A stretch of 63,693 nt of DNA, the filler included, from Licmophora abbreviata (Eukaryota), in NCBI GenBank assembly GCA_900291995.1. It is 16 parts of 16 records of this genome, joined end to end, with 100 filler letters (N's around TTAATTAATTAA, not from the genome) between each part and the next. Parts side by side here need not be neighbours in the genome. Positions count along the whole stretch, not along the records: positions 40,961 to 47,103 come from OLMU01000382.1; 15 more parts are not named here. The stretch is one strand, 5' to 3'. The notes under the pieces were generated by a model. The model saw nothing but the letters and a program-made list of their open reading frames with translations, had not been told where the DNA came from and made no database searches. A program made the position numbers and the translations under genes. This document shows, in pieces, positions 1,054 through 47,103 of this stretch. The first letter of the stretch is position 1; each line of letters opens with the position of its first letter.

Positions 1054-1275
1054 TATTCCAGGCCGTTTCGCAAGACCATCACATCATGTTGAAGGGGCTG
1101 CTGAAAATCGATTTAGAAAAGAGAGTGTGTTCTCATCCAGGTTCTGTCATGATGTTCTTTCTGTCGGTGTGACATGTCATGACATTTTCCAAAACTTTCA
1201 CTTGAAGTTTGGTTGGATCTTCGATCTGGGTGTCGTGAAAATGGGGAAAAGCCGCATTGTCAACGAAAGATCACC

Positions 1276-2094: not shown

Positions 2095-2193
2095 GCTCAG
2101 TGGACACTGTGACTGGCCTAGCTAGATTCATCAGAGGACTCCAATGATATATATTTTTTTAGTTTCATTTTTTGCAGAAAGCACTGCAGATAT

Positions 2194-5100: not shown

Positions 5101-5389
5101 CATCTTCCGGCTTTACCACTTCCACATGAATTTCCTGTCCCTGCCATGGATTAGCGTTGCGCAATAGTCGAGCAGCCACGGCCGGTGTGTACGACGTAGA
5201 AATTTTGAACAAGGCAATCGTTCTCGAGTTTTTCTGTGATTTAGAAAGGGACGTATTCAGAATCTGTCCAGAGACTGCATTTTCTACATGAGCTTCCAGC
5301 TCAGCCTGGTCTACAGCGCGAGGGAGCCTCGTGACCTGTAGCGTTACCACTCGTCCCCTTCTGTTGTTGCCGATAGTCGCCATGGTCAA
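2194..5389 (-). CDS. MOV10/SDE3/Armitage-like UPF1-family (SF1) RNA helicase, 2 exons
   Basis: GLAEGRPSVLRGD (MOV10 signature). Walker A GPPGTG|KT split by intron 3636..3549. DEAGH, GDPRQLGP, NYRSH, VETFQGQE and RFNVAITRA motifs. Confidence 0.93.
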
Positions 5390-6090
5390 AAGGAAGTGTG
5401 CAAAAGTACAACGTAGTGTGCGTATGTTGCAATGCTGTTGGCTGCGGTCTTTAGCGTGAGAGGCAAGGCAGGTGCGAATTTCTGGGATAGCGAAAAGCGC
5501 GCGAACGTCAGTCGGTCGCCGGTATTGACGACGTCAGACGACGTCGGGTAGAATGTCCGGATTCAACACTCATCCTGCGTATTTACGATCTTGTTGTTGT
5601 CGCAGTTGTTGTTGTCGCATGTATCTGGTAGGCTTTGTTTATGTCGACATAGACGCATTGTAAGCTACTGTTCTATTACTAAGGAACTTCTTTGTCTAGA
5701 GAAGACACCTTTCAGTTGCTTGGGGGTGTTTCGTCAGTCTAGAGTGTTCGTCGCTGAGCCGGGAACGAGCGTGTCTACTTATAGTAGCGACGAGCTACAT
5801 TCTCTGCCGCTACTACTTACTCCACATGGGTCTCCGAGATCCGCTTTCCGCACTGCATAGTACAGGCAATGGCTGCGTCGGCTCAGGGTCCACTACCTTT
5901 CGATTCACTCATGGCTGGATCTTAGGCCAGATGGGGCGAAATATCCTCATGCCCAGATACGGCTTCCGTGCTTGACTTTTTCACCGCATCCGATTTCTTA
6001 TCGAGCACCCGTGTCTTCCGATCGCAGGCTACTTCCCTGAGTTATCATCGATTGGTCACCTTGGGACTAGTTCTCCAGAACGAGGGAAAA

Positions 6091-7458: not shown

Positions 7459-7463
7459 ATCCC

Positions 7464-7563
7464 NNNNNNNNNNNNNNNNNNNNNNNNNNNNNNNNNNNNN
7501 NNNNNNNTTAATTAATTAANNNNNNNNNNNNNNNNNNNNNNNNNNNNNNNNNNNNNNNNNNNN
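7464..7563. other. Artificial scaffold spacer N44-TTAATTAATTAA-N44 (stops in all six frames). Also at 17474, 21038, 25967, 27084, 31920, 35729, 39400, 40861, 47104, 49123, 53249, 56906, 60845 and 62337
   Basis: Identical 100-nt blocks; genes continue across several of them. Confidence 0.98.
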
Positions 7564-7795
7564 GAGATGCCCGAAAAACAAGTGAGTGTCAAAAATATAC
7601 AAATCCAGGGCGAGAAAAAAACCGCTGCTATTGAAAGGAGAGCATGGTGGACTCGCTGGGCTGCCGCAGAGAAACGATGTACCCTCATCGACGAGCTCTG
7701 TAGTGGTGTGGTTGGTGGATAATGTATAATGTCTGTGCTGGTTGCATGTTGTGTTGGAAGTAGCATCATCATCCAGTCATCACACAGTACATCCA
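7564..7795. repeat. Near-identical second copy of 7231..7463, probably an alternative haplotype overlap across the gap
   Basis: ~230 bp repeated on both sides of the spacer with about 7-8 substitutions. Confidence 0.85.
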
Positions 7796-8051
7796 CATCC
7801 CAACGCGCTGTCATCAGCCGCGGCGGTATCGGCGGTACCGGTTTATTGAAAGTATCATGACATTGCATCTTTATTTATGAAACTGTATTCATGCATATAT
7901 TCTATAAATCTATTCAAAGAATCGCCATGGGCCTTTTTCCTTCTGAATGATGACTCTTTTGTCGTCATTATTTGCAAAAAGGGTATGCCTCTTGGTAATA
8001 CTGCCGCCGCCTTCCGTTGTGATCCTTGGGAGCAGCTCCTGGACGACTGAA

Positions 8052-9398
8052 ATGAAGAAAGTGTGCCTGTTCAGCAGACCATTGCTGCTCGTGTGCGCAT
8101 TCGGAATCTATTATGTCTACAATTCAGCCATTCTTTTTCAAAATTTCGACCACCAGGAGGCGACACGGACGTTGATGATGTCCATCCCTTCGCAACGACG
8201 TACCAACTCCAAACAACGTACTTCCAGAAAATTGCCTCGAGTTCTGGCTATTGTCTTTCCACAATTTCACCGCGATCCGCTGAACGATCAACTTTGGGGG
8301 GAAGGTTTCACAGACTGGAACAATCTTCGGGCGGCACCAGCGACGAACCGGCTGGGCTATGAAATTCCAAGACCTACGGAGCTTGGGTACTATGACTTGG
8401 CAAATCAAGCCACCAGGAAGATGCAAGGAGACTTGGCGCATGAGTATGGCATCGACGGGTTCGTGTACCATCACTATTGGTTTTACGATGAGAAGCATCC
8501 CGGCCCGAATCTGCACCGACCGCTTGAGGAGATGCTCAAGGATGGACACCCAGACGTCCCGTTCTTTCTCAACTGGTGTGCCATCAACTGGGTTGATACG
8601 TGGAGTGGCAAGGCCGTAAATGCTTCTAAAGGTGGAGGAGACAACTTACTGCAAGGCCAGACTTTTCCGGATCCCGAAGATGCTTCCGTCCAGGAGCACT
8701 ATGACTGGCTCAAGCAATTCTTTCATCACCCAAACTACATCAAAGTCCGGGGACAGCCTGTGCTGATGCTGCATCAGAAGAAACCCAGGGCGTTTCCAAT
8801 CCTTCAAAAGTTCCGTCGGCTTGCAGAAAGCGATGGATTTCCAGGATTATACATTGTCGTCGGAATGGGCAAGACGCACGATGATCTCTTTCCAGAGGGA
8901 AAGGATCAAGGACAAAGGTTCAATCGATTTCCTAAGGACACGGTGAACAGAACGGTCGCATACCCTCAACCGTATGAAATTACATCGAAGCAGGTCCTCA
9001 AGGTTCCCGGATGGTGCTTGAAAGACCCCAAACCGCAAGGACACTCCTCCCCGGGCTTCCAGATTCCCGGTATTCTAACTTCGTTTGACAATACTCCACG
9101 GAGGGACTTCGAAAGTGCGTTCTTGTGGTCTGCGGATGAGCCTGACAAAGTTGTAGAACGCTTCTATCAGAGTGTGTATGCGGCAGTGTATTATGAAACA
9201 TGTTGTTTCCCGCTAGCACAGGAAGCAAGCGGCGACGATGAACGATTGATTGTGATAAACTCAATGAACGAATGGGCAGAAGGCATGGCTTTGGAGCCAA
9301 GTAACGTGTTTGGGCGTAAACTTCTGGAAGCCGTCCGGGACGCCAAGGCGGAAGTTCTGCATAGTAATTGCACGACTTCTATGGAAACAAAGTATTAA
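8052..9398 (+). CDS. WbsX / GH99-like domain protein with type II membrane anchor
   Basis: LAIVFPQFH...NDQLWGEGFTDWNN, LGYYDL, YGIDGFVYHHYWF, FDNTPRR and INSMNEWAEGMALEP are WbsX-family motifs. Intronless. Confidence 0.88.
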   Translation: MKKVCLFSRPLLLVCAFGIYYVYNSAILFQNFDHQEATRTLMMSIPSQRRTNSKQRTSRKLPRVLAIVFPQFHRDPLNDQLWGEGFTDWNNLRAAPATNRLGYEIPRPTELGYYDLANQATRKMQGDLAHEYGIDGFVYHHYWFYDEKHPGPNLHRPLEEMLKDGHPDVPFFLNWCAINWVDTWSGKAVNASKGGGDNLLQGQTFPDPEDASVQEHYDWLKQFFHHPNYIKVRGQPVLMLHQKKPRAFPILQKFRRLAESDGFPGLYIVVGMGKTHDDLFPEGKDQGQRFNRFPKDTVNRTVAYPQPYEITSKQVLKVPGWCLKDPKPQGHSSPGFQIPGILTSFDNTPRRDFESAFLWSADEPDKVVERFYQSVYAAVYYETCCFPLAQEASGDDERLIVINSMNEWAEGMALEPSNVFGRKLLEAVRDAKAEVLHSNCTTSMETKY

Positions 9399-9867
9399 CA
9401 ATGCAAAGAGGAACTTTGGCGTTAGCTAGCTACAGAAGCTACAAGATGGCTCTGCATTCTTGCTTCAGCTATAGAATACCAGTAGCTAGAAAGTGACGGC
9501 AAACTATTATCATCAATACGTGAACCGGTAGAGTATTTCAGGATCCATACACGGCATCATGGTAGCAGGTACCGACCGTAGCTGTGAATATAGAATAGGT
9601 ACGAAGCACCTGGTAACGCTATGTGAGAGAGAGTGCTCCTCTCGTCCGTCTGATGTCACCGGATGACGGATGATGACCCATGACGAGCGCGCCGCCTCAT
9701 GAATGCCGCTCGCGCTCGTCGTCGCGCGTCAATACTCAACTCTCCAGACACAGCGGCGTCGACGACGATGGTGACCGACAGCACATGCTAGTCTACCCGG
9801 TATAACCTTTTCATTGTTGAAGAGCAATCCCATAAGAAGACTGTTGAAGCGCAAAGTAGATTGAACC

Positions 9868-12538
9868 ATGTCTAGGTAAAGTAAATTGGTCTGAAGGCGA
9901 CAAAGCCATCACGGAATGGAATGAAGATGACCCCTGCGGTGCATGGTTGTGTGTGCTCTCCCCTCACACCCTCTGTCTTTCTCGCGTGTATTCCACGTAC
10001 GATGATAGGTGGCTGAAATCGGTGAATACCTTGTTGGACTCGCTGGATGGACAGGTGGAAACGGCCATAGAAGAACAGGTGGCGCACGAACAAGATGATG
10101 CGCGCGCATTGGGCCAAGAGACGGTCGAAAGCATCTTGGCCAAGCGAGGTCTTTCGGCGACGAATGGTGTAATTCTGGAACCGGAAGCGACTCGAGAGGG
10201 TTCCTTTGGGAAAAGTGAGACTGATGTCGAAGCAAAGGGGCATGTTGATGAAACAGTAGTGGATGCCCAGCCTGTTGTGTCGCAGAGCGAGGAGTTTGAC
10301 GTTCCAGAGGAAGCTCTGGCGGTTGAAAGTTCCACGGAACCCGAGACTGTGTCTGAAGTAGAAAAGCCAATTGAGAACGATGAAAATCAGACAGACCAAT
10401 CCGCGGAGCCGGTTCAGGAGATCAAGTCCGAAGTAGCCGCTGAGGACGCTCCTCAAGTCATGGCCGTGGTGGACTTGAGCATCGAAGCCAAGGAGGAGGA
10501 GGACGCCAACGAGGAAAGGAGAGGAAGTCCCACAATGGTGGAGGCTGTGAATGAAGCGGCCTCACAGAAAACGCCGAGTCTGCCACGGCAGGAACCTGCG
10601 CCGTCGTCGCCCAAACTGGAAGCTTCAAGCTCTGCTGCACCCACCGTGAATGTTCCTACGCAGAAGAATTTCGAGGAGGAATTCAAGGCAGCCTTGGCAG
10701 AAGCGCGAGGCGCACAAAAGGAATCGCGGACCCTTCGACGCCATGTGGTTGCACTCAATGAAGAATTGGAGACGGCAGAGGCGGAAATTAAAGCGCAGAG
10801 GACGGAATTGGAGCGAGCCGGTGAACGCATGGAAAAGGATCGCACCCGTCACAAGGAAGAAAAGGAGGTCTTCACAGCTCGGCATGTAGAAGAGATCAAA
10901 GCTCTCAAAGCTCAGCATGAGCAAGCGATGAGGGAACAAAAAAGACTAGCAGATGAGCAACTGGAAGGGGCTAGAAAGCGAATGCGTGCTGTAGAGGAGC
11001 AGCGTATGCAAGAGGGGGGAGATTGGACGAAAGAGCTTGAGGTATCTGTTCAGCGCGAGCACGATGCGGCACAACGAATGGCGTCGCTGGAGTAAGTACG
11101 AAATCTGAGCTGCTTGTTGCACTTTCTTCTCGCCAACTCATCGACTTGCGTTGCCCTTTAGAGATGAAAAGTCGACGCTTCTCTCCCAGATTTCGACGCT
11201 TCAGGCTCAACAGGCTGCTCTTGCGAACAGAGTGGAGTCGCTCTCTCAGACTGCTGACAATGCTTTGGATCGTGAAAGGGAGGCGGACGATCGATTGGAT
11301 GCAGCATTGTCAATGCATGCGCGCCAACTTACTCAACGGCAGGTAGGTTTGCATTTTATTCAGTTTGTTTTGGTTGTATGCCGTAGCCACCCCCGTCTAA
11401 CTTGCGACTGACCGGTTCCTATAGAATCGAGAGGCTGAGCTAGAACGAACAGTTACGGATCTCGGCGCTGCTCTGGTCGTCGCGCGAAACAAGGAAGTAG
11501 AGCGTCTCAAGTCGGAACAGCATGCTGGAGTCACGAGCGACAGCGGGGACTCCGGTTCTTCGACGGTGAAGCTGGCAGCGGCGGAGGATGAACTGGAGAC
11601 AGTCAAGGCCCAGCTCGAGATTGAAAAGCAGCGCGTAAGTTTGTCTTTGTCGTGAATTGATTCTCTCCGGGCTGTTGTACATCATTCTTATTAAAAGTCT
11701 ATGTTCACTTTTGGATAACAGTCGCAGACGTTGCACGAGGAACTTAGGGACCAGACAAAAGAAAGAACGGAAGAAGCATCTGCTCTTCACGCTCGACAGC
11801 TACAGAGCGATCGTCGTGTTACCGATATGTCGCTTACTATTTCGCGGCTACAGGCCACCATGCGGGACACAAAGAGGGACTCGTTGGAAGATAACCATGA
11901 CTCATCGCGCTTCGCCGACGGAAAGGACGAGCAGATCAAGTCGCTGTCGGAACAGGTCATTCGTCATCAAGACAGGCTAGGACAGAGCTCCACTGAGATC
12001 AAGGCCATGAAAAGTCGTCTACAATCCGCTCTGAATCGCGCGGAGCAGGCGGAAGCAGCATTAGCAGCTTTCAGCGAGACCGATAGTGTGTATGATTCGA
12101 TGGAACGTGGCCCAAAGAGCGCTAGTATGAGGAGAAGAGGAGGACAGCCGCGTGACGTGTCGGGTGGATCCATCAGGTCCGTGATGAATCTGAACAAACC
12201 GGGACAGGAGAAGATCGCCAAAGCCATTGATGTGGTTGATACTTTCTCAGTCGAGACTGGTAAGTCAACGAGAGCTCAAGCTGTTCACTGTCAGTTCGAC
12301 TTCGATGCTTAGTACAATGTTGTTCGCTTGTCATTTAGGGAAATACCTCCGCTACAACCCCTTGGCCCGCGGCTTCTTTCTTCTGTATCTAGTTATGATT
12401 CATCTCTGGACATTCGCTTTGTTGATGTTTCACGCGCATGGCTACGAAACGGTTCACGGCGACTTTGGCGCTGGGAGACAGCTTCCTCACGGCCCGCACG
12501 CGTTGATGCACCAGCAGGATCCTGCTCAAACTCCTTAG
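9868..12538 (+). CDS. Golgin-84 (GOLGA5)-like coiled-coil Golgi tether, 6 exons
   Basis: MS|RWLKSVNTLLDSLD N-terminus, long coiled coil, and C-terminal LRYNPLARGFFLLYLVMIHLWTF TM. In-frame GT-AG introns at 9876-10008, 11092-11161, 11343-11424, 11635-11721 and 12260-12338. Confidence 0.85.
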
Positions 12539-12651
12539 GACGCAAAGCGTTCTACTAGCTAGGAAGGAAAAAGAGGTGGGATAGTGTTTCTTTTTTTATT
12601 GTTAGGTTCGCATTAATGGAACTTGGCCATCTTGCACTCAGGTGCGAACAG

Positions 12652-15384
12652 TCAAAAACCCGAGTTGTAGTCCCTCACAAAAAGCATGGACTGCTGTATT
12701 TCGTTCAACATCATGACTGAGCGGTTGACCTTGCGCTGATCGCGACCAAGACGCCGCCGCTTTCTCCGGCTTACTTCCGGGAAGTTGTCTTCCTCTTCCT
12801 CCCAGAAGTCTGTTACTGTCCTCGCCTCGCAGAAAGGGGCCTCAATGATCCGATCTTGTACTTTCTCGTTGTCGGCAATACCATCCTCATCTATAGGAAC
12901 ACACAGCTCACAATCCGATCCAGCATCGCAAGCAGAGTGTCTTATTTTCGTCCGCTTGGGTACAAACCTCACAGGACGCTCAAGAAAAGCTTCGAACTCG
13001 ATATCGCTACTGGACTTTTTCTTGCCACGGTTCTCGTATTCATGATGGAGTATGCTTCTTTCGACCTCTTCTCGATGTCGAACCTTTTCAATGCGCTCGG
13101 CATCACCCTTCTGGCCCCGTGTCCTAAGTTCCTTGTTGTAACCGAGTTTTGTCTCTTTCAAGTACTCTTCATCGATCGAGGCAGAATTGTAATCCTCCTT
13201 CAAGGCTTGCAGTTCCCTATTCGCCGCTGCAACTGCAGAAGCCAAAGTACTACCAAATGCTACAGGTGCAAAGTTGCCGTACATGTAGTCACCGACAAGT
13301 TCTTTATGATCCAACCGTTTCCAACCATCCAAAGATGAAGCTGCGGGGGCAGCCGGCAAGACTGGAGCTGAGCCACGTTTTGCCGCTGGAACTCGGTCGG
13401 GTGGCTTCAGAACAGACTTAACGATCTGCTTACGTCCTTGACTATGGTCTTCAGCTCGTTTGCTTGCCAGTTGAATCTTTGTCACGTCATCTAAGAGCAT
13501 GCACCCTCGGTGTTGTGATGAGACATGCCTCCGTAGCTCCTCATCGGAACGAAATCGAAACTGCTTTGTCTTCGTATCCGACCAAGGACAGAACGGACAC
13601 ATGCAGTGAATCTTGTCGCGCACTTTTTCCACATTAGTACCATGAGTTTTCTGTATATGGCGCACTAGTCCACTCCAGCTGAACCATCCATTGCAGACTG
13701 GACAAAGATACACGTGTCGTTTCACATTTTCGCAGAGGGAGCCTCGCATCGGCAGCACAGGATGCGAATCTTTCATATGCTTCAGTCTCTCCTCCGCACT
13801 GTGCGAGATATAGCTGCAGTGTGGGCATCCATGCTCACCAGATCGGAGCCTATGCAGCTCGCTTCTATGTCTCTCCAAGAAGCAGAGGCCAAAAGGCCGA
13901 AGACAAGCTTCACACTCGCCAACTTCGATATCGCGGTAGTGTTTCTTTTGATCAAGTTTTGAAGCCAATTCAGTGGCAATGGGTTTCTTGCTCGAAAGAG
14001 AAGTCGATACGTCTTGTGTGCCGCTTCTGAGCCGTCGTCTTAGAGGGTCGAGGATGGAGGCAGGCTGCTCTCTCGAAGCTTGCTTCTTGTTCACAGTAGA
14101 AGCCCCCGATCGACAAATTCGCGTCGAGACACTTTGCCTTTCGCCATTCGCCATCGTCGAGTCACCAGCGGTGTCCTCGCCGTCCGCTTCCACGCGCACT
14201 CCAACGCCAGGAACGTACTGGCACTTGGTATGGCATGCTGAACATTCGGTTCCCACATACGGACAACGATTGCCGCACTCGGGACATGAGAACCCACTGC
14301 TAACCGTCGCCTGGGCATCGAGAAGTGTAGACACTTCGGAAATCGTCATGGGCGTTGGGTTAAATCGATCGACCTTCAAAATCTTCCGCTGCGGTCGTGA
14401 GCTTCCAATTGGTGCATCCTGGCTTTTTGTATCGACGGTTTTGTCTGTCAAGTCGCTCTGTGCAACTGGTGAGGACTCTGATTGGGGCTGTCCGGGCCGG
14501 ACGACGTCCGACGATGCTCGAGTCGATCGTATTGGTCGACGGACACTGGGGCGAGTCACTGTCACGTCCTCTTTCTTCTCTTCTCCGTCCTTGTATTTTG
14601 CTCTATCTCCTCTCAAACTCTGGCCCTGCTCTAGACATTCTTTCACTAATCTCACGGCACCTCGATCGTTCGGTGCGTCAGTGTCAGGCAGCATCTCCCA
14701 TGTTGAACCCAGTTCCAGTCGCCACTCCTTTTGTTGGCTCCACGAGCACAGTCCTGGGGACGCACAAGACAGAGCCATGTCAATATAATCTTTCAGACAA
14801 TCCAGCTTCATTGTGTTGCTGGCTGCCGTATCACAGTCTGTCAGTCGAGTTAGAAGCGGCCCAAAGTACAGTGTTTTCCCCGACGTCCGACATGAAACTT
14901 CAAGTGACGGCGACACAGTTCGACGTTCTGATATTTGACTCTGAATTTGTTGTAGCATGTTACGAAGCTCGGCACATTGTAAAATATAGCGAACAAGATT
15001 ATCAGGCGCAGAGGATGATCCATCCGCTGTTGGACCCTCTCGCCACAGTCGCGCCACCCAGACGGTTGGAAGGCGACCGGTGGGCGATGGATGACCCTCT
15101 GCGACTCCTGCTGCCAGAACGCCCCCGTCTACTGTTTGTACACCAAAGGGCCGGAAACGAACCTGCCAGCACTGTCGATCCGGCGTGTAGAGACCGTGGC
15201 CGCAGGGGGTCGTGATGCGTCCCTGTGGCGAGGGCAGATCCTCCGAGGACGCTTCCACGCGAGTCGCTTCGGACAAGCTTGTCCGGATCTTTTGGATCAT
15301 TCCAAGTGTTTCAGCATCCCAATCTGTATCTACAATCAAGGTTTCAGGGTCTTTTCTTCGATTCGAAACATCAATGGCTGCCAC
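12652..15384 (-). CDS. C2H2 zinc-finger protein with an additional C4 zinc ribbon
   Basis: 910-aa ORF with CPECG..CSAC, and CEAC..H..H, CPHC..H..H, CPVC..H..H, CPFC..H..H fingers. Confidence 0.75.
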   Translation of the reverse strand: MAAIDVSNRRKDPETLIVDTDWDAETLGMIQKIRTSLSEATRVEASSEDLPSPQGRITTPCGHGLYTPDRQCWQVRFRPFGVQTVDGGVLAAGVAEGHPSPTGRLPTVWVARLWREGPTADGSSSAPDNLVRYILQCAELRNMLQQIQSQISERRTVSPSLEVSCRTSGKTLYFGPLLTRLTDCDTAASNTMKLDCLKDYIDMALSCASPGLCSWSQQKEWRLELGSTWEMLPDTDAPNDRGAVRLVKECLEQGQSLRGDRAKYKDGEEKKEDVTVTRPSVRRPIRSTRASSDVVRPGQPQSESSPVAQSDLTDKTVDTKSQDAPIGSSRPQRKILKVDRFNPTPMTISEVSTLLDAQATVSSGFSCPECGNRCPYVGTECSACHTKCQYVPGVGVRVEADGEDTAGDSTMANGERQSVSTRICRSGASTVNKKQASREQPASILDPLRRRLRSGTQDVSTSLSSKKPIATELASKLDQKKHYRDIEVGECEACLRPFGLCFLERHRSELHRLRSGEHGCPHCSYISHSAEERLKHMKDSHPVLPMRGSLCENVKRHVYLCPVCNGWFSWSGLVRHIQKTHGTNVEKVRDKIHCMCPFCPWSDTKTKQFRFRSDEELRRHVSSQHRGCMLLDDVTKIQLASKRAEDHSQGRKQIVKSVLKPPDRVPAAKRGSAPVLPAAPAASSLDGWKRLDHKELVGDYMYGNFAPVAFGSTLASAVAAANRELQALKEDYNSASIDEEYLKETKLGYNKELRTRGQKGDAERIEKVRHREEVERSILHHEYENRGKKKSSSDIEFEAFLERPVRFVPKRTKIRHSACDAGSDCELCVPIDEDGIADNEKVQDRIIEAPFCEARTVTDFWEEEEDNFPEVSRRKRRRLGRDQRKVNRSVMMLNEIQQSMLFVRDYNSGF

Positions 15385-16019
15385 TGTGGCAGGTGAGGTG
15401 CTGCTACCGCTGGCAAGGGGGGCGACGAGGCAGACGACGAGTTCATCGATGATGGGTCCTTATCTCGTTTGCCTCGGTAAGCTTCTCCCCTGTCTCTTGG
15501 TCCCAGATTCGTCATGCCGCCTTTCAGTTCGTCGCACTTTTACCGAAAGTAGGACGGTGGCGACGCGCAGAGTTGGGGATGTCGGCGCCTCACAAATTTC
15601 CCCGCTGTCTCTCGTCGCCGTTGTGTTGCTAATGGCCGGCATCGACGCTCTCCGGGTGAGATCTCACAGACATGAGTGTACGAGCAGAGAGAGAGTATAC
15701 GAGTCGGGTACCAAGTCTAAGATATCTCAGACAGGCGCAAGAAATCACAATTCGACTGATTCGACTCAGAATTATTGATTTTGGTCACGAGTGTGATGAT
15801 GCGGCGAAAAAAAATTCAAAATGGCGCATTCTCAACGCCGGCGACGGTCCGACACGCTTGTCAATCATCATCACGTTCTCCTCAAATGAGCACGTTTGAG
15901 TGACATTCGTAGTCTTACATTCATCACTACGTATAGAACCGATAGAAGGAGCGCCAAGAGGTTGCGACAAGAGATGGAGCGAAAACTGAGTCAATTTTTA
16001 GTTTCCGGTGACAGTCATC

Positions 16020-19000
16020 ATGAGCAGCAAGAAGGAGGAAGTCACGAGTCTGGACGCATACTTTAATCGCGTCAGCAGCTCAGAAGAGCAGGCTTTGTCG
16101 GGAAACAACGCTGGTCGTCGTCTTCGTCGTACTTCCGCGCAGCAAGAGGAAGATGAAGAATCGGGAATTCGCTACTTCTTGAGTGAACCATCCGTGACGA
16201 GCGAGGGTGATCAATCGGAAAGCGTTCACCGAGATCGTATTCTGTCGCTGCTATCGCCTGCGCGTGATGAAACGGAGGAGGTAGTACGGGAGCTATCACC
16301 AGGGGCTACAAGTCTGAGTTCCAAGGAAAGTCTACTTGTGGGTGGGAAAATGGTCCAGTTGCAGTTTACGCCGGAACACGCTCTGAGGAATCGAGTTCGG
16401 GTCCCGTATGCTCCTGAGTTACCCACTCTTACTTCCAAACCGAAACCAACGGGGATCGAAACTGCAAACGATCTTGAATCTGAAATGAAACCTTCTCCAG
16501 CGATTGGCCAGCTGTCAGAACCCTTGTCGTTGTCCACCGAGAGCTACGGTGCACTCAGAGAGCAAACGGGAACATCGGACGCTGATGGCACTGTCGAAGA
16601 AATCGTGGTGAGCGACGCCGAGACGGACAAGATTGGTAACTCTGTCGCTTCCATGGCCCACACTGTTGATGCTGACGAGACGCTCGTTATGACACTTTCC
16701 GAGACGGATGACGATGAGGTGCGAACGAAAGATACCGAGGCAACACCGCTTGACTGGGAACAACAGCATTCGGCTGATGACGAGCAGACACCGCTGGTGA
16801 GCAGGCTGAATCGCAAACGCTGGGTCCCAAGCAAGATTGCAAATGGACACCGTCGGACAAGGAGCGGAGATGCGGCAGCTGCTAGTCTCATGACGGGTGG
16901 GCTAGACTGGCGAGGTATGCAGCGAGATCAGCTTCCGATTCCGCCACCACATGTTGAGGAAGGCGAGGAGGACGACGAATTCATAGATGGAGCTCAATCT
17001 ACTCCATTTGATGAGCGCTGGTTGAAGGCAGACAAAGGGGAGCACGTATCCGGTGTTTCGAAAATATCGTTGAGCAATACTCGATGGAGACGGTCCGGGC
17101 CGTCCCAGCAGTACAGTCCAAGGGAGGGGCTAGAACTCAGCGAAACGGGTCCCGACTTGCTGTCGCCAAATACTTTCTCTCACCTTGCCCTTCAGCCTCA
17201 GCATCAAGCAACTGGTCCTTACCTAGCGTCGTATGGGACTTCGACCTCGAATCCGAGACGCGGTCGGCTCCAGTCGGAAGCTAGTGCAGACTCTTCACTG
17301 ACGCGAGAGTCCGGTTTTTCATGGCTTTCTACCTCAGAGGCGTTGCCAGCTGCACCTGGTGCACAGTTTGCTGACCGAGGGGTTTCGAAACCCCTGCAGC
17401 AACGCGAGAGTCCGAGTGAGAGTTCTCAGTATGACGACGAGGACTCCGAGAGCTACTTTTCAAATATAGAAGANNNNNNNNNNNNNNNNNNNNNNNNNNN
17501 NNNNNNNNNNNNNNNNNTTAATTAATTAANNNNNNNNNNNNNNNNNNNNNNNNNNNNNNNNNNNNNNNNNNNNGCTACTTTTCAAATATAGAAGAGGAGG
17601 AACAGAATATCATGCGCACTAGAATGCCACCTAGGGGTGCTTCTCTTCAAGAAATTCCAGGAGACGAGGGGCTCCTTCGAAGTCGAGATTTCACTAGTAG
17701 CGTACAAAGAGGTCTGCACGGCAGCATAGTCTCGCCTTTCGCAAATGTTGGGGAATATGGACCAAAGGCTTCCCTTTCATCGTTCAGGGTGGCAGGGATG
17801 GATGGGGTCGGCTCCGGTTCTCACCCCACTTTTGTATGCCCGCGCTGCAACACCGTTCAGAGGGAGTTTTTCACTGTGGCGACTGCACCTTCGCAGTTTG
17901 AAAGCCCTGCTGGCTATCTAGCCGTGTACTTTGGAATTTACGTCATTGCTGCGCTCTACATTTTTGGGTTGGAGGTACGTGCGACCTCACGAGAATGCGC
18001 ATGCTCAAGTCGCATCGGCTTACAAACTTCTTTGTGATATGAACCGTTCTATAGGAGGGATGGGCGCCTCTAGATTGCGTATACTTTGCTGTCATCACGC
18101 TAACTACAGCAGGATTAGGTGATTTCGTGCCTACTTCCGATGGAGCCAAGATCACGTGCAGCATTTTCATTTACTTTGGTGTCGCGTGCATTGGCTTACT
18201 ACTCGGTACCTACTTGGCTAGCATGATGGATGACAAATCCGAGAAAGAAGCAAAGCAAAAACGAGTGGAGAACTGCGCTAATTGTTCCCGATTGAATGAT
18301 ATCAGGCACCAGCGGGCGACGCGTGCCGCGATGTCAGCTTCTTCTAGAGAGTTCTCGGGTCGAGATTTCTCTAGCCGCGATATCTCTGGAAGATCGAGAT
18401 CCACGGTGTCGTCACAGGGCGACAAAATGTGGTTTTCTGACCGTTCTCGGGATATACATAGCTCTGACATCGATAGTGCTGCTGAGGGCCAGGCTGGAAT
18501 TAGCCACGCACGCCAGATGTCATCTTCGCTCAGATCCATTTCGGAAGACAATGGTCCTTCAGAAAATCTAAGGACACCAAGTGATACGGAGAGCCGGAAG
18601 AGAGAAGATAGGCGCGAGGTGATTCATGGTTTCGGGAGGAGTCCTGAGCAGTTGTTGTCCCCCGGGACGAAAGCAGCTCTTGGATCCCCAATGACGTCGC
18701 AGATCATCCGCCGACAAAGCCGGACGCGTCACATGTCAATTGGTCACGATCAGCAAAGTGCCTTCTTTGGCTCACCAACTGACAGTGCTCGTAAGATGAG
18801 CGAAGATCTTGCCTCTTCGGCCGCCATTCCTGAAGGTAGGCCTTACAATCCGGTCTCATCGAGATCGACGAACACGGAATGGAGAGCGGCAGGCGAAAGC
18901 GGTGAGCGAAGTGAAACTGAAGACGACGAATCTTTTTATTCCGCGTCTTCTTCGTTGTCTGAGGAAGTTGGGGCCATGAGGGCACCCGACAAACTGAAGG

Positions 19001-19941
19001 CGGCCAAGTACATTTTCCTGACATTGAAGCAGGCGCTCATGAATTCTATCCTGATCATTGTCGTTGGTGGAATTGGTTTTCGCGTCATTGAAAAGATGAC
19101 CTTCGTGGATAGCTTCTACTTCACGACAGTTCTGTTGACAACTGTTGGATATGGTGACATTCATCCAGTTACATCGGCAGGAAAGCTGTTTGCTACCGTC
19201 TATGTGCTTGTTGCCGGCACGGTTTTGTTGAACAACATGTCGCTCATAAGTATGATTCCGCTTGAGCTACGAAAACGTCGGTTAGAGCGCGTGGTTCTCA
19301 CTCAGTTTGGAGACCAACTGGATGACATTACTTTAAGGGAATTGGCGACTGGTCCACTTGTTCGTCGGCTCCAGTTGTCGCACAACCCCTCTACACCTGG
19401 ACTGGACAAGTGTACTCGTGAAATGTTTGCCTTGGCCATGTTAGTTCGATTGGGAAAAGTATCTGAACGAGATATTCGCCAGACCTTTGCAGCCTTTCGA
19501 CGACTGGATGTCGACAAGGACGGCGTCCTGAGCAGCAAGAGTATCATTGCCGGTATGATGGCTTCCCAACGACGCGCGAGTCAGATGAGCATTCGACAGT
19601 CAAGTCAGACGAGTGGACGACAGGCAAATCAGTCTAATGCACCACCTCCGCCGTCATACTACGAGCACGAGATGCGAGAACCCCCGCTAGACTACTGGTA
19701 TGACTCGAGAGGCGTAGACGGCCATCTTTCTGCTGCTGCACGCGAGCAGGGATTTGAGCGATTAAGTCATGTCCAGCGCAGCGTCTCAGTGTCTCCTCGA
19801 TTCCGGCCGGATTCTTCTGAGCGATCGTCCTTGTATGTGAGCAACAATCAAGGATACGATTCGTTTCCGTACGACGTCGAACGTGGCCCCTACGATGACT
19901 GTGGATACCATGGAGGAAGACTATCAAGTTCTCTCACCTAA
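16020..19941 (+). CDS. Two-pore-domain K+ channel (TPK/K2P-like) with long disordered N-terminus and EF-hand; spans a gap and one intron
   Basis: Pore 1 YFAVITLTTAGLGD (after intron 17975-18054), pore 2 YFTTVLLTTVGYGD, EF-hand DVDKDGVLS. 22-nt overlap across the gap at 17474. Confidence 0.88.
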
Positions 19942-39625: not shown

Positions 39626-41407
39626 ATGAGTAGCCGCGTTCAGTCGACGAGAGGAAATCCTTCTCGCACGCGTAGCATAGGAACCGCATCAGATCTGTCG
39701 GACGACCTGGATCTTGCGCAAATGGTGGCTCATATCAAGACAGAAGAAGATCTCGAGGAACACTTGCACAATGTTCTACCGCAGTCGATTCCGACTTCGA
39801 ACGACCCGATGCAGCGATCGGCATCCAAGGCCATACCGATGGCGAGCTCCTCGTTAGGTCAGAATGCATCGTCGTCCCAACCGAGTTCGATGGGATCTTC
39901 CGGGAGTGGTTTCATTAGTGGCATCATGAATCCCGGTGGCACGGGACTCCTGTCTCACACTCCTCCTACCCTGTTTGGAACTTCGTACGAAGTGCAGCAC
40001 TTTGCAAAACGTCCCAGAGCAGGGGTAAGTGTCAATTGGATAAAGCGTTCGTGCTGTATGCTGTAGGGTAGAGAGGCTCACCCTTTGGCTTCTTATCGTG
40101 GTCATTACCAGAGCATCTCTGGGAGGTTGCGCTCCGCGTCCGAACTCGAAGACAAAGGTCTTATTGATCGTCAACAAAAGGCCATCCTCAAGGATCTCAT
40201 CATCTCGGGCGATGAAGATCTGCAGGCTGCACTAGACCAATATGATCAGGGCAACACGGCCCAGCTCGAGAGCATGATCCGCAGTGGAGAACTGTCGAGT
40301 CGTGCTGCCGCTGACATTGATCTGCTGGGCGACCTGGACTTGGATTTCTTGACGGTTGACGACCACTTCGGTGGCCTTGCTGCGGAGGAGGCAGCAGCAT
40401 CCATGCCACCTGTGGATGCACCAGGTGCTCCCGAATCGGGTCCAATTCCGCTGCACGCACCGCCTTCCTTTCCGGGGCGCCATCTGGTCCCACAAGTGAC
40501 GGGTTCTTCGCAAGTTCATCCCAACATGGTGTCGCCTTCGGCATACAACGATGATGACATTGGTGAATTGGACTTTGATGGAGAGTTCTTCCTGCCAGCA
40601 GCGGGAAACCAGTCGTACGGATCCAAGGGAGAGTCAATGGCAGTACAGGTTGATCAGCGGTTTCGGTCCAACTCGCTGGCGTTTGGCGGTCTCTTGAATG
40701 AGAAACCGACTGCGGTCGACACCGAAGCCCTGTATGGAAACTGGATGGACAGAGATGTACCCCCGACTCGGGAGGGGATCCCTGTAGGCATTGGCGCCAG
40801 TCTCGCGGCCTATGGGCGGTCGAAGAGCGAGTCTGGCTTGATTCTGACCAAGGCGCAACTNNNNNNNNNNNNNNNNNNNNNNNNNNNNNNNNNNNNNNNN
40901 NNNNTTAATTAATTAANNNNNNNNNNNNNNNNNNNNNNNNNNNNNNNNNNNNNNNNNNNNGGGAACGAGAAAAGGCCGAGAAGAAGGAGCGCCGCGAGTC
41001 CCTCAAACGTGAAAAGAATGGAGAGGGATGCTCGTGAGAAGCAGGGACGAAAGGACAAAAAAGCAGCTGCAAAGGCAAAGCAGGCTGAGGTGGACGAGGA
41101 GCCCACAGAGCGGCCGTCTGGTTTGGGCATTCCACGCTCCATGAGCGACCCAAATCTGTCTTGTAAAATTGATGCGAATGGTTTGCTCAATGTGGAACGC
41201 CCTGAGGGATGGGTCGGTGCGTACTCCCCAGAAAGCCGGAAGATCCGGATCGAAAGATTCAATGCCAAACGTGGACACCGTGTATGGACCAAAAAGGTCA
41301 AGTACGATGTGAGGAAGAATTTTGCTGATAGCAGGCTTCGCGTGAAGGGCCGCTTCGTTAAGAAAGAAGATGAACTTCTGATGCGAGACCTGATGAGCCT
41401 AACATGA
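39626..41407 (+). CDS. Long CCT-domain protein; intron ~40025-40111 and a gap
   Basis: Exons join KRPRAG|SISGRLRS. C-terminal CCT RIERFNAKRGHRVWTKKVKYDVRKNFADSRLRVKGRFVK. Confidence 0.88.
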
Positions 41408-41736
41408 CAGTGTATAAAGAGGGGAGCCTGAATACCTAGAGCTATAGATCACGCAACGTGCGTAGATTTGGTTTGAACTGCAGTAGAGCTGCTAGGAATA
41501 CAACGACGTACAGAAACTGGTAAAGCTTATCGCAAAGACATCAGCTAGCTACACTAGTGTGAAGCATCCGTGCTATCGGTATGAGCAGCGAGAAAGAAAG
41601 AATTCTTGTACTTCTACAGGTGCTCCAGTACATGCAGAAATGGCTCGCTTGTGCTTTGTGCGAGTCCCCTTCAATCACGTTCATACTGTAATTTCCAAAT
41701 ATGACAGGTACAAGTTTTTATAACCAAAAAATAAGG

Positions 41737-42853
41737 CTACGAAGGATCTTGTCCTTCGTCGTTCTCGTCGAATGAATAATTGAGGGCGCCGCGGCTCGGT
41801 CCCACGACCACCATGTCACCCACAGACAAAGTAGTGTTGAGACTACTTGGTGGACTCGCAATAGAATTTCTTCGCACATCTACATAAGATGTATCACTGC
41901 CATGTTCACTGTCGAATGGTACTAAAGAACCAAGAGAATCTGCGAGGGGGGAGTGAAAAGCGCTCAGGGCGACCCCAGTGTCCGCAGCGTGTTCCCTTTG
42001 GAGTCGTTCGCAATGGTAGAAATAGTTGCGCCAAAAGACTGTTTCCTTGACGTCACTGCGACCTGTAGAAAAAGAGATTCGAAGGCAGGTAGGTGAAGTT
42101 GAGAAATCAAATCCTTTTCGCTTTTCTACATCCAGATCCAGTCCATCAGTTTGAAAGATTCACGACACCGAAACATCGTGAATCGTGGAAGGAATGTCCA
42201 GCGGCCGAAAACCACACGAATGCGCTTCGGCCGAAATCGGACGAGTCTAAGGAGCGAATCAGACTTATCTTACCCGAAAGCTTGGCATGCATAGCCGCAA
42301 GATGTTCATCGAACTCGAGCAAGCGGCGAATCAGATGAATGTGTGGCTCGTCGAGAGTGAAACCCCGAACGCTTTCTTCCCCAGCATCACTGGCTACGTC
42401 ATACGGTCCTCGAAACGTGGCCTCCTTGTGGCTCACCGCCATTATCTTCAACTTGAGACCATTATCATCTTTGATTTCCTCGTCCGTTTCCATCTCCCAT
42501 GGGAGGTGAAGCTCGTAGTCCTCGCCGACACCCGAATTTCCACCGTAATTTTCTTCTCGCCAGCGTTCCGCCTCCTGTTCGGCTTCACGCTCGAGCTGTG
42601 CAATTTCCGCAGCCACCGTCATGGCCGAGCGATGAACTAGGCTGGCAACACCTTCGAAGGCTGCGGGAACATGTGTCTTGAAGGACTTGGCAAAACTTCC
42701 GAGCCACCCGTTCCCGGCCTGCTCTTCTTCGGAAAGGCTACCAGCGTCAGTAGGGGAAGTCATGATGCTGTCGTTCATGCTATCTTTTTTCGTGACTTCC
42801 GGCTCAGACCCAACCAGATTCGGATCAATCAGAGGATCCAGAGTCGACGGCAT
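41737..42853 (-). CDS. BSD-domain protein, 2 exons
   Basis: Intron 42273..42063 joins ...LLEFDEHLAAMHAKLSG to RSDVKETVFWRNYFYHC (BSD FW.YF motif). Stop TAG at 41739-41737. Confidence 0.82.
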
Positions 42854-43656
42854 GGTGAGCAGTATAACAACACCACAACCACGGATTCTCAACCAAGTGA
42901 ACTCCCAACACGCACAGGGTAGACACGAGTACCACCACCTTTCGACGAACGTGTCAACCCCATCACGAATTTCGATTCTGCTCTCGTGGAGTTGTCGTAC
43001 ATACCGGTACGGCGCCGTGGTACACATAGTGTTTTCAATACCTTCATTCAGTACTGAGGATTTCCGAAAATGTTAAATTGAGTACACGTTTTGGTATTAT
43101 GTTTATTTTATGTGAGACTCTACTTGAAGATAAGAGGCCATCTCATAAGTGTATAGGTGTATATATAAGTATAACACATCACAAAATTCGGGCGAACAGA
43201 ACGAGAGTGAAAAAATGTGAATGAATCAATCGAGTCAGTCGAATGAGTCTCGAGTCTACCAAGCGATGGTGCGGTTTCATAGACCCTATTTTATCGGTGG
43301 CATAAGGTACGTAGCTGGCACTGGTAACCTAAGCGGGTACCGGTACTTCTGATAGAATGAATCGAATCTAAGTCACATCGATCGAATCGGTAGTCTACAA
43401 GGCCACGACAAGCTTGACCAACTAGATACCTGGTGCCTTTCCCAGGTGCCACGATTTGGCGACGGTTCCGTTGTCCAGTATCGTACTGGACGACGTACGA
43501 GCAAGAGCATGGCTCAATCGAACAGACTTTGCACCTTATACCAGGTAACTTGCAGCCTAGAGCAAGGTAGGAGTAGAACCGAGAATATGAACGCATGACA
43601 TTGCATGCTGTTACAAATATTCGAGGTTGGAATAAGAAGCTACGTCCCGGGACTAG

Positions 43657-46600
43657 CAGATAATCACTTCTCTCATAGATATACAGTATAATATCCATTG
43701 CCCGGACGGACTACGATTTCAGATACGTTGGCTGACACTCTCTGTGGACAAGGAAATTAGCAAGGGACTTCAAACTATCTTCGACATGGAAGCAGACCGC
43801 CGAGCCCGACGGAAAGCATCGCAGGGACTCTGGTTTCGTGCAAAACCGTACTGCACCACAATAGCGGCATGGGTTGGTGACCACAACAACTGGCGCAATC
43901 TTCTCCTGCGGCTGAGCAGTGCCCACACACGTGCCATGTACAAAGACAAAGAATACCGAACAGCCACCATCATTCTCTTTGAAGAAACCACTGGTTTGTC
44001 AAGCAACGAATCCAGTGTCACTGACGATGGCGGTACTGATGATCCTGCCACGCCGCCAACACAACCTATCGACATTGACATGCAGCCACGACACCTAATC
44101 TGCCCCCTATGTCACCAGCATGAGACCTGTGCTTCCGAACATCCGAAAGGCAACATGCCACACCATCACCTCTTCTGCACGCAGGTCGATATAGAGAAGG
44201 CGCGAGAGGCACTCCTCGATTCGTACGAGGCAGCAGCCCAGCACCTCCTCGACAGCATTACACTGGCGCTCGGCAACAGGCAAGCAACCCAGCGATCGCT
44301 TGCTACACTCACCAAGCGATTACAGGCACTTGAACTCGAGTCTGCTACCAAGATGTGCTATGACTCACGACACAAGGCCCCACGTACTGAGAATATTTCT
44401 GTCATTCATAACGATGCGAACCGACTCCGACAGCACCGACGATGGATCGCCCTCACCAAACTACACCTCCTGCCAGCCACCGCCGATGGCGACATACTCG
44501 ACGCCGAAGCGTCAGCGGTTGACCTTACGTATCTGGGAGCCCTGCCTGACGCCTACTTTTACTGGATCACTACCATCTGCAGAATGGCACGATCGAAACA
44601 CAACACTACCGCAGCTACAAACCTGGAAACAGCATGGAAACGGGTGGTCGCATGGTGCATCTACAAAGCCGTTGCACTACAATGCGTTATTCAACATGTG
44701 CTTACACAACATCGAAAACAAGTGCTTACCCTCCACAAAGAACGCCACTCCCACGGACAAGAACCTGCACACAGCACCTCGGATGAACAGCGACGAAAGA
44801 CTCCGGCCCGCCACGAGACACCGATGCCAGCCACCAACAATCCCACTCGACCCACAGAGCAATGTACAGCAACTGGATGCCGCCTACGACAAGCCAGCCT
44901 CCAACGTTTCACTGTCGGAATGCGCCCCATTGGATCACAGAGCTGTAACAAGTGCACACGCTTCAATAAAGAGATTGCACGAGCGACCTTTGTCGAACAA
45001 CAACTCATCAACTCTTGCGACACGCGCAAGCACTTCATCAATACTATCCGACCACTGCTACCTGTTCAGCGCCTACGTGCAATCGCCCGACTTGCAACCA
45101 AATACGACGATACCAAGCGCTTATGGCCACCTAACATGACCAAAGGCCGATATGCTTTCAACGACTACTTGCGACATGCAGCGTTCCGCGTGACAGAAAC
45201 TATTCTCCTCAGTACAGGAAGCGATAGCCTTGCACCCCTCCCGGCAGTACTGAACACGGCTGTCTTACGCCAAAAAGCCAGCATACTCTGTGAATGCCAC
45301 CCGCCACAGTGCGACGTCTCACATCCACGGCCGATCACAAACGACCCTGCATCCTGTGACTATCCAAAGCTTTGCCATCTGTGCGGCTCACTCCAACCCC
45401 GACCAGGAAAAGACAGCTACCCCCCTGCTGCGACGCCGCCTTGTCCCACTTGCCTTGCTACCACAGCCGATCCTGACGTGCCATGCCATCCCTGTGTTGC
45501 CCTATGGCTTTGCGTCCACAACTCGACTAAGATACGCACACAGACTGCGCTTGCGACAATCTCGAACACACCACAGACTACGCTCCCGACACCAGCAGGA
45601 CTCTCCTCGACCCAAGACGTGCGAACCCCCACTACAGCTTGCTCCACATGTGCACCTAAAGCAAACGGCGACACACCCATGTCAATGCCTACATTTCCCA
45701 ATGACTCCGACCTGCAACACCCAAGATACACAAGACATGAAGTAGTCCGACAGCAACGTCAGGCGATTGTCAGTGCAATCCAACACAGTCCCAAAACACG
45801 GAACGGCAACACCAACCGAAAGAAGAGACACCACAAGCTAGACCAACACCAACTTGCTACACTTATCATGGCCCGAACTGATCATGACACCCAACTATCA
45901 ACCCAACAACACCGCTCAGTTACTTTTGGCAGCTCACTTGTCCTGCGATATGACACAACAGCGGATCCAGCTTCCCTTCGACCGAAACGAAAACAGCATC
46001 CACCACCAACATCAGCTCTCGTCCTTCCACCTGTGACACAGAAACGTCGACGCCTACCGCTACAGTCTACGGACCTGAACAACTCATCCCCCAGTACATC
46101 CGGCACCCCGCTACAACCATCGGGCAGCATCGTCCACCTAGAGGAGGTCATGAGGAGTGACCCGATGACCATCCCATCCCTACAACAAGCCATTCCCACT
46201 GCTTTCCTTCAATCTACCTACATGCTGCGTGGTCACCATATCGCCGCTTTTCTAGAAATTGTGATGCGGCAACCCCAGATCACAGCAATGCATGCGTATC
46301 TTTTGCATCCATACTTTCTACGGTGCCTCCATGACCGCGGTTGGAACGATGACATGAATCAGAAACACTTCCGGAATGGAATTATCAATGACGACTCGAT
46401 CATCACTCCGCGGTTCATGCGTAACACGAGACCCCATTTGCCGCCCACCCAAGCTCCTCTCCTTGTAATCCCATCCTTCTCGGGCTCCGATGTCACATCC
46501 GGACATTGGTTCACCATCATCCGCGTCCGCACAGGACCGCCACCCCAGAACCAGGAATCCCAGAATGATCCAGACGGAAGCGTTACTTTCTTCTACATGA

Positions 46601-47103
46601 ATTTCGTTGACTCGACCCAATGATGCACGTTTTGCGAAAAGCCTGCTCCAACGAACCACTCTATGGAATCATGCTCCAGGAAAAACGAAGTGGACTCACG
46701 TTTCGACACCTTGCCAAGTGGGTTTGGACTGCGGAATATGGGCGATTCTCAACAGCTACTTCTTACTCGGCTGGATAGCTCGTGATCCGCTAACCCTGCT
46801 TGACCCGGCGTCTCGACTCGATTTTATTCCCGATGGTACCAACACGCCTGAAACTATTGGACTACGAGCTCGACGCGTCATTCGAAATGCACTTGCATGC
46901 GCGCCACAAACGACTACAGGCCTTGATCCTACGAGCTTCACTTCCTTGCTACGCCTCGACGTCAATGGCAAAGCTGCTACAACAAAACTTGCCAATCGGA
47001 GGCGCCGACAAAGACGACATAAGCCACAGCAAATTAGATAACTTAATGACCGTAAGTAAAAGTGCAATTTGCGCTGGTCGCCCCATACCAAACCCCGAGG
47101 AAG
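43657..47103 (+). mobile_element. Putative 5'-truncated transposable element (non-LTR-like) encoding Cys-rich domains and a C-terminal Ulp1/C48-like protease; frameshifted at ~46621
   Basis: Intronless 959-codon frame whose open reading begins without an ATG after the stop at 43654. Strong A/C strand bias unlike host genes. CPLC..HHHLFC knuckle; GHW (46504), VDS, then CQVGLDCG (46730) in the +1 frame. Confidence 0.6.

Follow-up and report, generated by a model that had tools for sequence, protein, structure and literature searches.

In the 63,693-nucleotide stretch of Licmophora abbreviata DNA analysed here (assembly GCA_900291995.1; hereafter the window), positions 43692-47041 very probably hold the dead remains of a retrotransposon without long terminal repeats (non-LTR), or long interspersed nuclear element (LINE), which was truncated at its 5′ end, carries a frameshift, and belongs to a family whose second open reading frame (ORF2) bears a protease that is a putative deconjugase. 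Full-length relatives appear to have two frames, an ORF1 of some 300-390 aa and a very long ORF2 (about 2800-2990 aa), in which an apurinic/apyrimidinic endonuclease (APE)-like domain would be followed by a reverse transcriptase (RT), RNase H, a CCHC zinc knuckle, a conserved post-knuckle block, cysteine clusters, a linker, and a Ulp1-like protease. The copy in the window retains only the part after RNase H, a pattern such as abortive target-primed reverse transcription would leave. The preliminary description of this DNA, made from the sequence alone, had proposed the 3′ part of a non-LTR element with its protease downstream of the knuckle, and the longer relatives described below bear this out.

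The window ORF is split by a one-base frameshift

The longest open frame of the whole window runs for 988 stop-free codons (43657-46620), and the +1 frame (46601-47041) adds 146 codons that close with a TAA stop at 47039-47041; this confirms the frame of more than 1100 codons that had been described. We compared contigs from four public sequencing runs (X1-X4) with the contig that carries the element. All three of the run X2 metagenome contigs that cover the end of the first frame lack the extra letter found in the window (two at 46602 and one at 46604; summed depth 6.5/6.5). Some 4-6% of the letters in these X2 contigs are unlike those of the window (11 of 189 and 12 of 263 in two listed contigs), so they come from other copies of the element or from copies of a relative. 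Skipping one T yields an unbroken frame over 43657-47041, which reads ...FFYMNSLTRPNDARFAK.... The two frames are parted by a one-base frameshift, not by an intron, and the extra T may be either a mutation or an assembly error, the site being covered only by contigs of other copies or of a relative’s copies. Because the read-through at 46602-46604 gives this sequence, the ‘FVDS’ that had been taken for the catalytic Asp-Ser lies in the wrong frame, and the corrected frame reads Asn-Ser instead.

The element also differs from its surroundings in composition. A+C makes up 60.6% of 43692-47041 vs 51.6% of the flank, in agreement with the A/C skew noted earlier, and between 44001 and 46000 the GC skew is -0.22 to -0.33 and the AT skew +0.22 to +0.25. 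The label ‘CG-rich’ did not hold: observed/expected CpG is 0.98 in the element, equal to that of the whole window. The motifs LLLRLSSAHT, CPLC...HHHLFC, CTATGC..CNKC and CECH..CHLC..CPTC..CHPC are all present, although the knuckle spacer is 16 residues long and not 14 as first counted, while LRGHHIAAFLE, YLLHPYF, LVIP, GHW and CQVGLDCGIW stand where they had been placed and the P/T-rich linker was found as well. The first ATG of the frame (43786) falls within a conserved block.

Relatives carry RT upstream of the part that matches the window

An exhaustive HMMER search with the window ORF returned 52 proteins at E ≤ 1e-3, seven of them at ≤ 1e-10. A word-indexed protein search with the 988-aa frame gave no match, and with the protease-domain alignment and longer lengths it gave only four unnamed metagenome proteins. 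Residues 12-546 of the query align to residues 345-880 of the best homologue (P0002, 1.6e-42), and query residues 12-630 align to about residues 1500-2290 of proteins that are 2000-2850 aa long. The matches in P0013 (2853 aa, 2.9e-9; residues 1948-2285), P0015 (2250 aa, 4.5e-9; residues 1498-2136, taking in most of the window ORF) and P0034 (2002 aa, 1.1e-5; residues 1155-1568) lie about 700-1000 residues downstream of RT.

Pfam scans of 24 of the 52 homologues found RVT_1 in P0013, P0034 and P0044 and Peptidase_C48 in P0023, with no match in the other 20. RT motifs align in seven of the nine long proteins of alignment A2, P0015 included, and P0056 and P0037 start inside or after RT. The motifs of the aligned RTs (..YRPISL.., ..QG.P.SP.. 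and YxDD) are ones that we take to be of LINE type. An Atlas search with P0034 produced leads only, all below 0.9; one of them, under the reliability line, hints weakly at a diatom host. When 55 homologues were searched against the whole window by tblastn, 54 matches were obtained, all in 43672-46825, so the window carries no remnant of RT, RNase H, or endonuclease; the earliest match starts at 43672, and most start between 43690 and 43714.

These relatives also bear on whether the ORF could be part of a DNA transposon of the MULE (Mutator-like element), Ginger1, CACTA or Zisupton type with a C-terminal Ulp1 domain, an origin that we find scarcely credible. The likeness lies in a Ulp1-type protease at the C-terminus of the main enzyme: Ginger1 transposases are reported to have C-terminal Ulp1 or OTU domains and Mutator elements to have Ulp1 (PMC2836005). 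Ginger1 and Mutator-like elements are, however, cut-and-paste elements with a DDE transposase and terminal inverted repeats, whereas the family here is RT-based. None of the Pfam scans brought up a transposase family, the relatives encode RT together with RNase H and APE-like blocks in one frame, and the contig has no inverted or long terminal repeats, while the relatives end in microsatellite-type tails. It is RT and not a DDE transposase that the longer relatives carry, with RVT_1 in 3 of the 24 homologues scanned and in 3 of 16 intact ORF2s.

Full-length relatives have the protease at the end of ORF2

Alignment A2, made of nine long homologues, was used for a metagenome scan that gave 108 relatives, with 79 loci kept; a scan with the window protein gave 36 pattern matches, none of them a relative. 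Translated with the standard code, 44 of the 79 loci have 2600 aa or more without a stop, mostly 2800-2990 aa. We used as anchors SDH (APE), G[YF]xDD (RT), [AS]TDG (RNase H), C..C...GN..H...C (knuckle) and Q..[ED]CG (protease), and all five occur in order in 38 of the 44 long frames, such that the succession of RT, CCHC knuckle, and protease is kept in these 38 with the protease last. Many loci have an upstream ORF1 of 300-390 aa (e.g., 360-1364 in L011, 225-1175 in L015, and 654-1661 in L022), and Pfam found no match in any of 10 ORF1s at E ≤ 0.1. In locus L017, two ORF2-type frames, 1123-9729 (2869 aa) and 11835-19547 (2571 aa), stand head to tail, and each is preceded by an ORF of about 330-360 aa.

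Pfam sees little of these proteins. Among the 16 intact ORF2s that were scanned, three had RVT_1 (one above the curated cut-off), one had a weak ElaD/SseL-like clan-CE match, one match was spurious, and 11 ORF2s had none. Upstream of RT, the APE block (36 sequences) shows little or no variation at N, E, Y, GD, D and SDH, which stand in canonical order. In hhalign it aligned to Escherichia coli XthA (exonuclease III) with a score of 29.6 (P 0.0027) and with GD..E, IDH and PSDH in register; the best of 30 shuffles scored 19.9, and the comparison with RnhA gave P 0.5. The RNase H block that follows RT (38 sequences) has an invariant D-E-D-H-D and aligned to E. coli RnhA, at its Glu and second Asp, with a score of 21.1 (P 0.019; shuffle maximum 16.9). 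The whole-ORF2 alignment matched E. coli RNase HI at an hhalign probability of 2.7%, with the catalytic motifs in register. The APE and RNase H assignments are statistically weak, if consistent.

The 3′ ends of the loci are alike as well. One conserved end motif follows the ORF2 stop after 250-450 nt in 24 of the 31 loci that have at least 380 nt past the stop; the motif of L079 looks spurious, which leaves 23 of 31 believable. The conserved 3′ untranslated region (UTR) segment ends ...ACACGTAAAAATATAACATA (loci L008-L075), and the end motif is then followed by 2-6 copies of a short, lineage-specific unit (CTTAA, CATAA, CATTA, ACT or CAAA). At least three units of a 3-6 nt repeat are present in 14 of the 31 loci; L017 and L033 have runs beyond the tail, and most others have two copies. 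Two ORFs, the domain order, the absence of terminal repeats, and a simple-repeat tail together identify the family as a LINE. It appears to be a diverse family of marine protists that is invisible to Pfam.

Several blocks of the window ORF have counterparts in these relatives (Table 1). In the post-RNase-H block, T, Q, G, W and R ... H.R..YK..YR are invariant or nearly so across the 38 intact elements. The pattern C..C...GN..H...C is present in 33 of the 52 homologues, and the knuckle residues C, C, G, N, H and C are invariant in the 38 intact ORF2s, themselves selected with the knuckle pattern. The post-knuckle block, in which H-R is also kept in the metagenome clade, occupies the place of the restriction-like endonuclease in Dualen-type elements. 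No PD...(D/E)xK pattern was recognisable in it, profiles of 23 and 38 sequences matched no solved structure at E ≤ 0.1, and Atlas gave no usable match for this region of the window ORF. The equivalent of the window’s four-Cys cluster, C.GITC ... KQC.RC, is nearly invariant in alignment A8, and CxxC-rich tails similar to the window’s are present in P0005, P0007, P0015 and P0024. The stretch that matches the window’s linker is the least conserved part of 41 aligned stop-free ORF2 frames (at least 2780 aa each).

The C-terminal domain resembles Ulp1-like proteases of clan CE

A profile of the window domain and nine family tails (A1), searched against PDB sequences, gave 11 matches, all to clan CE, which included a Ulp1-like SUMO protease (6dg4, 4.5e-6), SENP8 (1.3e-5), the CidB deubiquitinase domain, RickCE, SENP1, and XopD; the His, Asp, Gln and Cys of A1 aligned with those of the matched proteins. 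The corrected window domain aligned by hhalign with the nine tails, in a profile that left the window domain out, at 96.8% (E 2.6e-10, 175 columns), and with 38 tails at 93.6% (E 2e-7). In both comparisons, the window’s Asn-Ser aligned with the family’s Asp-Ser. A phmmer search of the window domain against PDB returned one chance match only.

An AlphaFold2 model built with A1 (10 sequences) had a pLDDT of 60.9 and a pTM of 0.60, and the single-sequence model was uninformative (pLDDT 34.7). Foldseek found 28 PDB matches for the former at E ≤ 1e-3, and the matches listed are all Ulp1, SENP1/2/5/7, NEDP1, XopD, NopD or CidB, with TM scores that span 0.31-0.47 on the query and reach 0.61 on the target. 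Of the 10 family tails, Pfam Peptidase_C48 picks up three, at E 0.0092 in the best case. The C48-type fold proposed in the preliminary description is therefore supported by the clan-CE profile and by the fold, but not by Pfam Peptidase_C48, which misses the window domain.

The residues expected of such a protease are conserved where the selection of sequences did not demand them. In the 38 intact elements, His is present in 38/38, Asp in 37/38 (the exception has Asn), and the following Ser in 38/38, all at positions that were unused in selection; Gln, Cys and Gly are also present in 38/38, but they were part of the selection pattern. The family signature reads PxFSG..GHW, DSLG, Q.ELECG. The window domain has the His, Gln and Cys, with Asn in place of Asp, and the one intact metagenome copy that shares this Asn suggests that it may be tolerated. 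In relation to Ulp1, SENP, NEDP1 and XopD-type proteases of clan CE, the domain is alike in the order of His, Asp, Gln and Cys and in fold, and its N-terminal helix segment is like the one that opens the C48 domain. Unlike Ulp1, SENP and XopD, the window domain falls below every Pfam threshold, has Asn for the catalytic Asp, and belongs to a family with a signature of its own.

One relative carries two such domains. In P0023, a family-type protease at about residues 890-1000 is decayed (His to Phe, Asp to Asn) and is followed at residues 1251-1428 by a canonical Pfam Peptidase_C48 domain (8.6e-26), and from these sequences it looks as if the lost activity had been replaced by a second domain.

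The breakpoint and other copies argue against a host gene

Homology to the family starts at about 43690 (residue ~1945 of P0013), in the middle of a block and straight after a stop codon, with nothing upstream. A run X3 contig matches 43641-43691 and then continues into unlike sequence, and other X3 pieces differ from the flank at 0 to 2 positions per 151 letters. A run X2 contig matches only from 43691 on and has 255 unlike letters before that point. The two breaks coincide at 43691, in agreement with the start of protein homology, and we accordingly predict that the truncated insertion joins the flank, at its 5′ end, at about 43691/43692. The X3 contig may represent the empty site, in which case the insertion would be polymorphic, and the X2 contig may represent another, longer copy; each is a single metagenome contig and is taken as a hint.

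Further copies are indicated by run X1, in which one piece matches 44440-44604 with 0 differences and another matches 46352-46574 with 10 differences in 223 letters, while its other pieces match the host genes of the contig with 0 to 2 differences. The exact and diverged pieces together suggest at least two copies of the element in that organism. At the other end, X3 and X4 contigs continue past 47102, so the 3′ UTR of the element extends off the contig; the 30-letter run-on sequences of these contigs are absent from the window.

A host gene, possibly a domesticated transposon encoding a zinc-finger protein with a Ulp-like protease, is a very improbable source of the ORF. It would account for a frame that is almost intact over about 1130 codons, on a contig that is shared with a CCT-motif gene (40961-41407) and has no RT. 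It is hard to reconcile, however, with homology that begins mid-block after a stop and with a first ATG inside that block, with a frameshift missing from other copies and a replaced catalytic Asp, with diverged copies in the same runs, or with breakpoints of two runs that coincide at 43691, and the strand composition is unlike that of the flank. A spliced host gene, which the preliminary description had named as a finding that would overturn its reading, is countered by the mid-domain start of homology, the frameshift, and the other diverged copies.

Features and neighbours of the element

The window consists of 16 short contigs, and its 30 runs of 44 N are paired around TTAATTAATTAA as spacers. 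Since there are 15 of these N44-TTAATTAATTAA-N44 spacers (7464-62436), the ‘gaps’ mark the ends of contigs, and pieces that adjoin here may be unlinked; the ‘gap’ that had been noted past 47103 is a contig joint. The contig with the element spans 40961-47103 (6143 bp). Ordinary eukaryotic genes lie on the other contigs and at the left of 40961-47103 (EMC1, a MOV10-like helicase, an ion channel, and an IBR protein).

No second copy of the element was found in the rest of the window by tblastn and blastn, and the repeats on contig 40961-47103 are short, weak pairs only, none of them inverted or long terminal repeats. Rfam gave no match on this contig or on seven full-length loci, and tblastn against phage records gave none. 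A gene without a Pfam match lies at 41737-43072 (-), and its start faces the insertion at a distance of about 600-800 bp. On a contig other than that of the element, a 668-codon frame (3530-5533, -) has a MOV10 beta-barrel domain (4.4e-15). LINEs in animals are restricted by MOV10-type helicases.

Table 1. Features of the element and its contig, in window coordinates.
Feature	Position	Strand	Basis or remark
CCT-motif gene	40961-41407	+	3.2e-16; on the element’s contig
Host flank, open by chance in the element’s frame	43657..43691	+	Breaks of run X2 and X3 contigs; start of homology
5′-truncated LINE ORF2 remnant (~1117 codons), all downstream of RNase H; no RT, RNase H or endonuclease	43692..47041	+	
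Post-RNase-H conserved block (LRF ... QG ... SHTR.YK..YR)	43702..43959	+	Alignments
CCHC zinc knuckle, C-x2-C-x16-(GN..)H-x4-C	44101..44178	+	
Post-knuckle conserved block, D-x6-D..LG.LP then W..V....A..LQ.VI	44500..44700	+	Alignments; D, D, W, G, W invariant in A8
Four-Cys cluster (C-x4-C ... C-x2-C)	44863..44955	+	
Cys-rich module with several CxxC pairs	45289..45495	+	Aligns with CxxC-rich stretch of P0004
Low-complexity P/T/S/Q-rich linker	45544..46224	+	222 residues, 24% Pro+Thr, 43% P/T/S/Q
Ulp1-like (clan CE) cysteine protease domain	46225..46894	+	Profile, fold and membership matches
Protease His in GHW	46498-46509	+	
Asn-Ser at the family’s Asp-Ser position	about 46597-46605	+	
One extra T in a TTT run, giving the +1 frameshift	46602..46604	+	X2 contigs have one letter fewer
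Gln...Asp-Cys-Gly of the protease	46712-46735	+	
TAA stop and first 62 bases of 3′ UTR, up to contig end	47039..47103	+	

Discussion

Several observations weigh against reading the ORF as the remnant of a protease-bearing LINE. Neither of the two raw frames of the window ORF nor either of its read-throughs gave any Pfam match, even at E ≤ 10, and Peptidase_C48 (PF02902) was likewise absent from the window domain at that threshold with either read-through. Confidence in the fold model is moderate (pLDDT 60.9; TM 0.31-0.47 on the query), and the model was built from the first read-through (P0001), in which six residues around the break differ from the corrected sequence. Among the relatives, Pfam recovers RVT_1 in a minority only, and Pfam and hidden Markov model (HMM) searches against PDB found no APE domain. 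HMM searches of PDB with the APE, RNase H, and post-knuckle blocks and with the whole ORF2 gave nothing meaningful, so the APE and RNase H assignments depend on weak hhalign scores and invariant motifs. The metagenome scan recovered no full-length copy of the window’s own subfamily, and P0015, P0007 and P0024 end without a protease, from which it follows that not every member of the wider family has a protease. Finally, the contig ends 62 nt after the stop, and the 3′ tail and any target-site duplication lie off the contig.

The family arranges a known theme in a new way and does not amount to a new kind of element. The NeSL families and Utopia-1_TSP of nematodes are among the closest known systems, as non-LTR elements with one large protein that has an N-terminal Ulp1-like protease and a CCHC finger (PMC4640811). 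Their protease lies upstream of RT, and they have a C-terminal restriction-like endonuclease and no APE. Unlike NeSL, the family here has its protease last (38 of 44 long ORFs), an N-terminal APE-like block, and RNase H after RT. The Dualen (RandI) element of a cryptophyte, Dualen-1_GCr (5287 aa), is similar in that one marine-protist LINE protein of giant size has the order APE, RT, RNase H, CCHC. It is, however, described as having a SET domain and a C48 peptidase, the latter listed ahead of APE, and as ending in a restriction-like endonuclease (PMC5029228), whereas the protease of the family here is C-terminal.

LINEs of the I group (I, Tad1, Ingi, R1, LOA) resemble the family in having two ORFs and an ORF2 in which an N-terminal APE is followed by RT and RNase H. 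A Cys-His motif at the C-terminus and 3′ tails of simple repeats are further features of this group. The family’s ORF2 is about twice as long as theirs and is barely seen by Pfam, and no report of a protease in I-group LINEs was found in the literature searched. The distribution of RNase H among I-group LINEs is that given in one paper (PMC4640811). A full-text literature search, which did not cover Repbase Reports or most subscription journals, found no LINE with a C-terminal Ulp1/C48 domain.

As for what the protease does, the reading that we favour, though we hold it tentatively and at slightly less than an even chance, is that it would act in trans to deconjugate a ubiquitin-like modifier (SUMO, ubiquitin, or NEDD8). 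On this proposal, suggested by sequence comparison, the ORF2 protein (ORF2p) would bring the protease to the integration site or to the ribonucleoprotein, where it would remove a modification that otherwise restrains the element. An unlikely but not negligible alternative is that the protease cuts the element’s own giant ORF2 polyprotein, or frees itself, and does not deconjugate host SUMO or ubiquitin at all. Clan-CE proteases of adenoviruses, poxviruses, and African swine fever virus process polyproteins. The 2800-2990 aa of ORF2 form one frame, in which six or more modules are separated by poorly conserved linkers, and the protease comes last of all, after the linker that varies most, as would suit such processing. 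Yet across the 41 long ORF2 frames there is no conserved Gly-Gly or other motif in any linker: only three Gly-Gly pairs are conserved, all in the APE, RT, and RNase H cores, which argues mildly against Ulp1-style self-cleavage. The matches listed at E ≤ 1e-3 are, moreover, all proteases specific for ubiquitin-like proteins or bacterial effectors (Ulp1, SENP1/2/5/7/8, XopD, NopD, CidB), with no viral processing protease among the matches listed for profile and fold. It is because Gly-Gly pairs are confined to the cores and the nearest matches are enzymes specific for ubiquitin-like modifiers that we favour a deconjugase over self-processing. The copy in the window is itself presumably inert: RT and a natural start codon are missing, the frame is shifted, and Asn stands where the catalytic Asp would be.

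A broader proposal, which we consider rather doubtful, is that a large LINE clade of marine protists has fixed a Ulp1-like isopeptidase, as the final domain of ORF2p, for a counter-defence that strips SUMO, ubiquitin, or NEDD8, with the replacement in P0023 as a sign of its indispensability. The retrotransposition machinery would itself deliver the enzyme to the target site. The targets could be host chromatin-silencing or repair factors, or ORF2p, and NeSL, cryptophyte Dualens, MULEs, and Ginger1 would each have arrived at this solution on their own. We treat an anti-silencing role of the protease as a hypothesis.

The interest of these findings lies in the family and not in the dead copy in the window. 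The usual view of LINEs is that their gene content is limited to the needs of copying: an endonuclease, RT, and sometimes RNase H. Dozens of intact and highly diverged elements here end their ORF2 in a SUMO/ubiquitin-type protease whose catalytic His is invariant and whose Asp is nearly so. This points to more than copying, and either manipulation of a host ubiquitin-like pathway or processing of a 2900-aa polyprotein would then be part of the life cycle of a LINE clade. An anti-silencing role has long been floated for the Ulp1 domains of MULEs and NeSL and is not settled. The family, a sizeable group of protist LINEs that is essentially invisible to Pfam-based annotation, is a natural sequence set for asking whether transposon-borne Ulp1 domains are anti-silencing enzymes.

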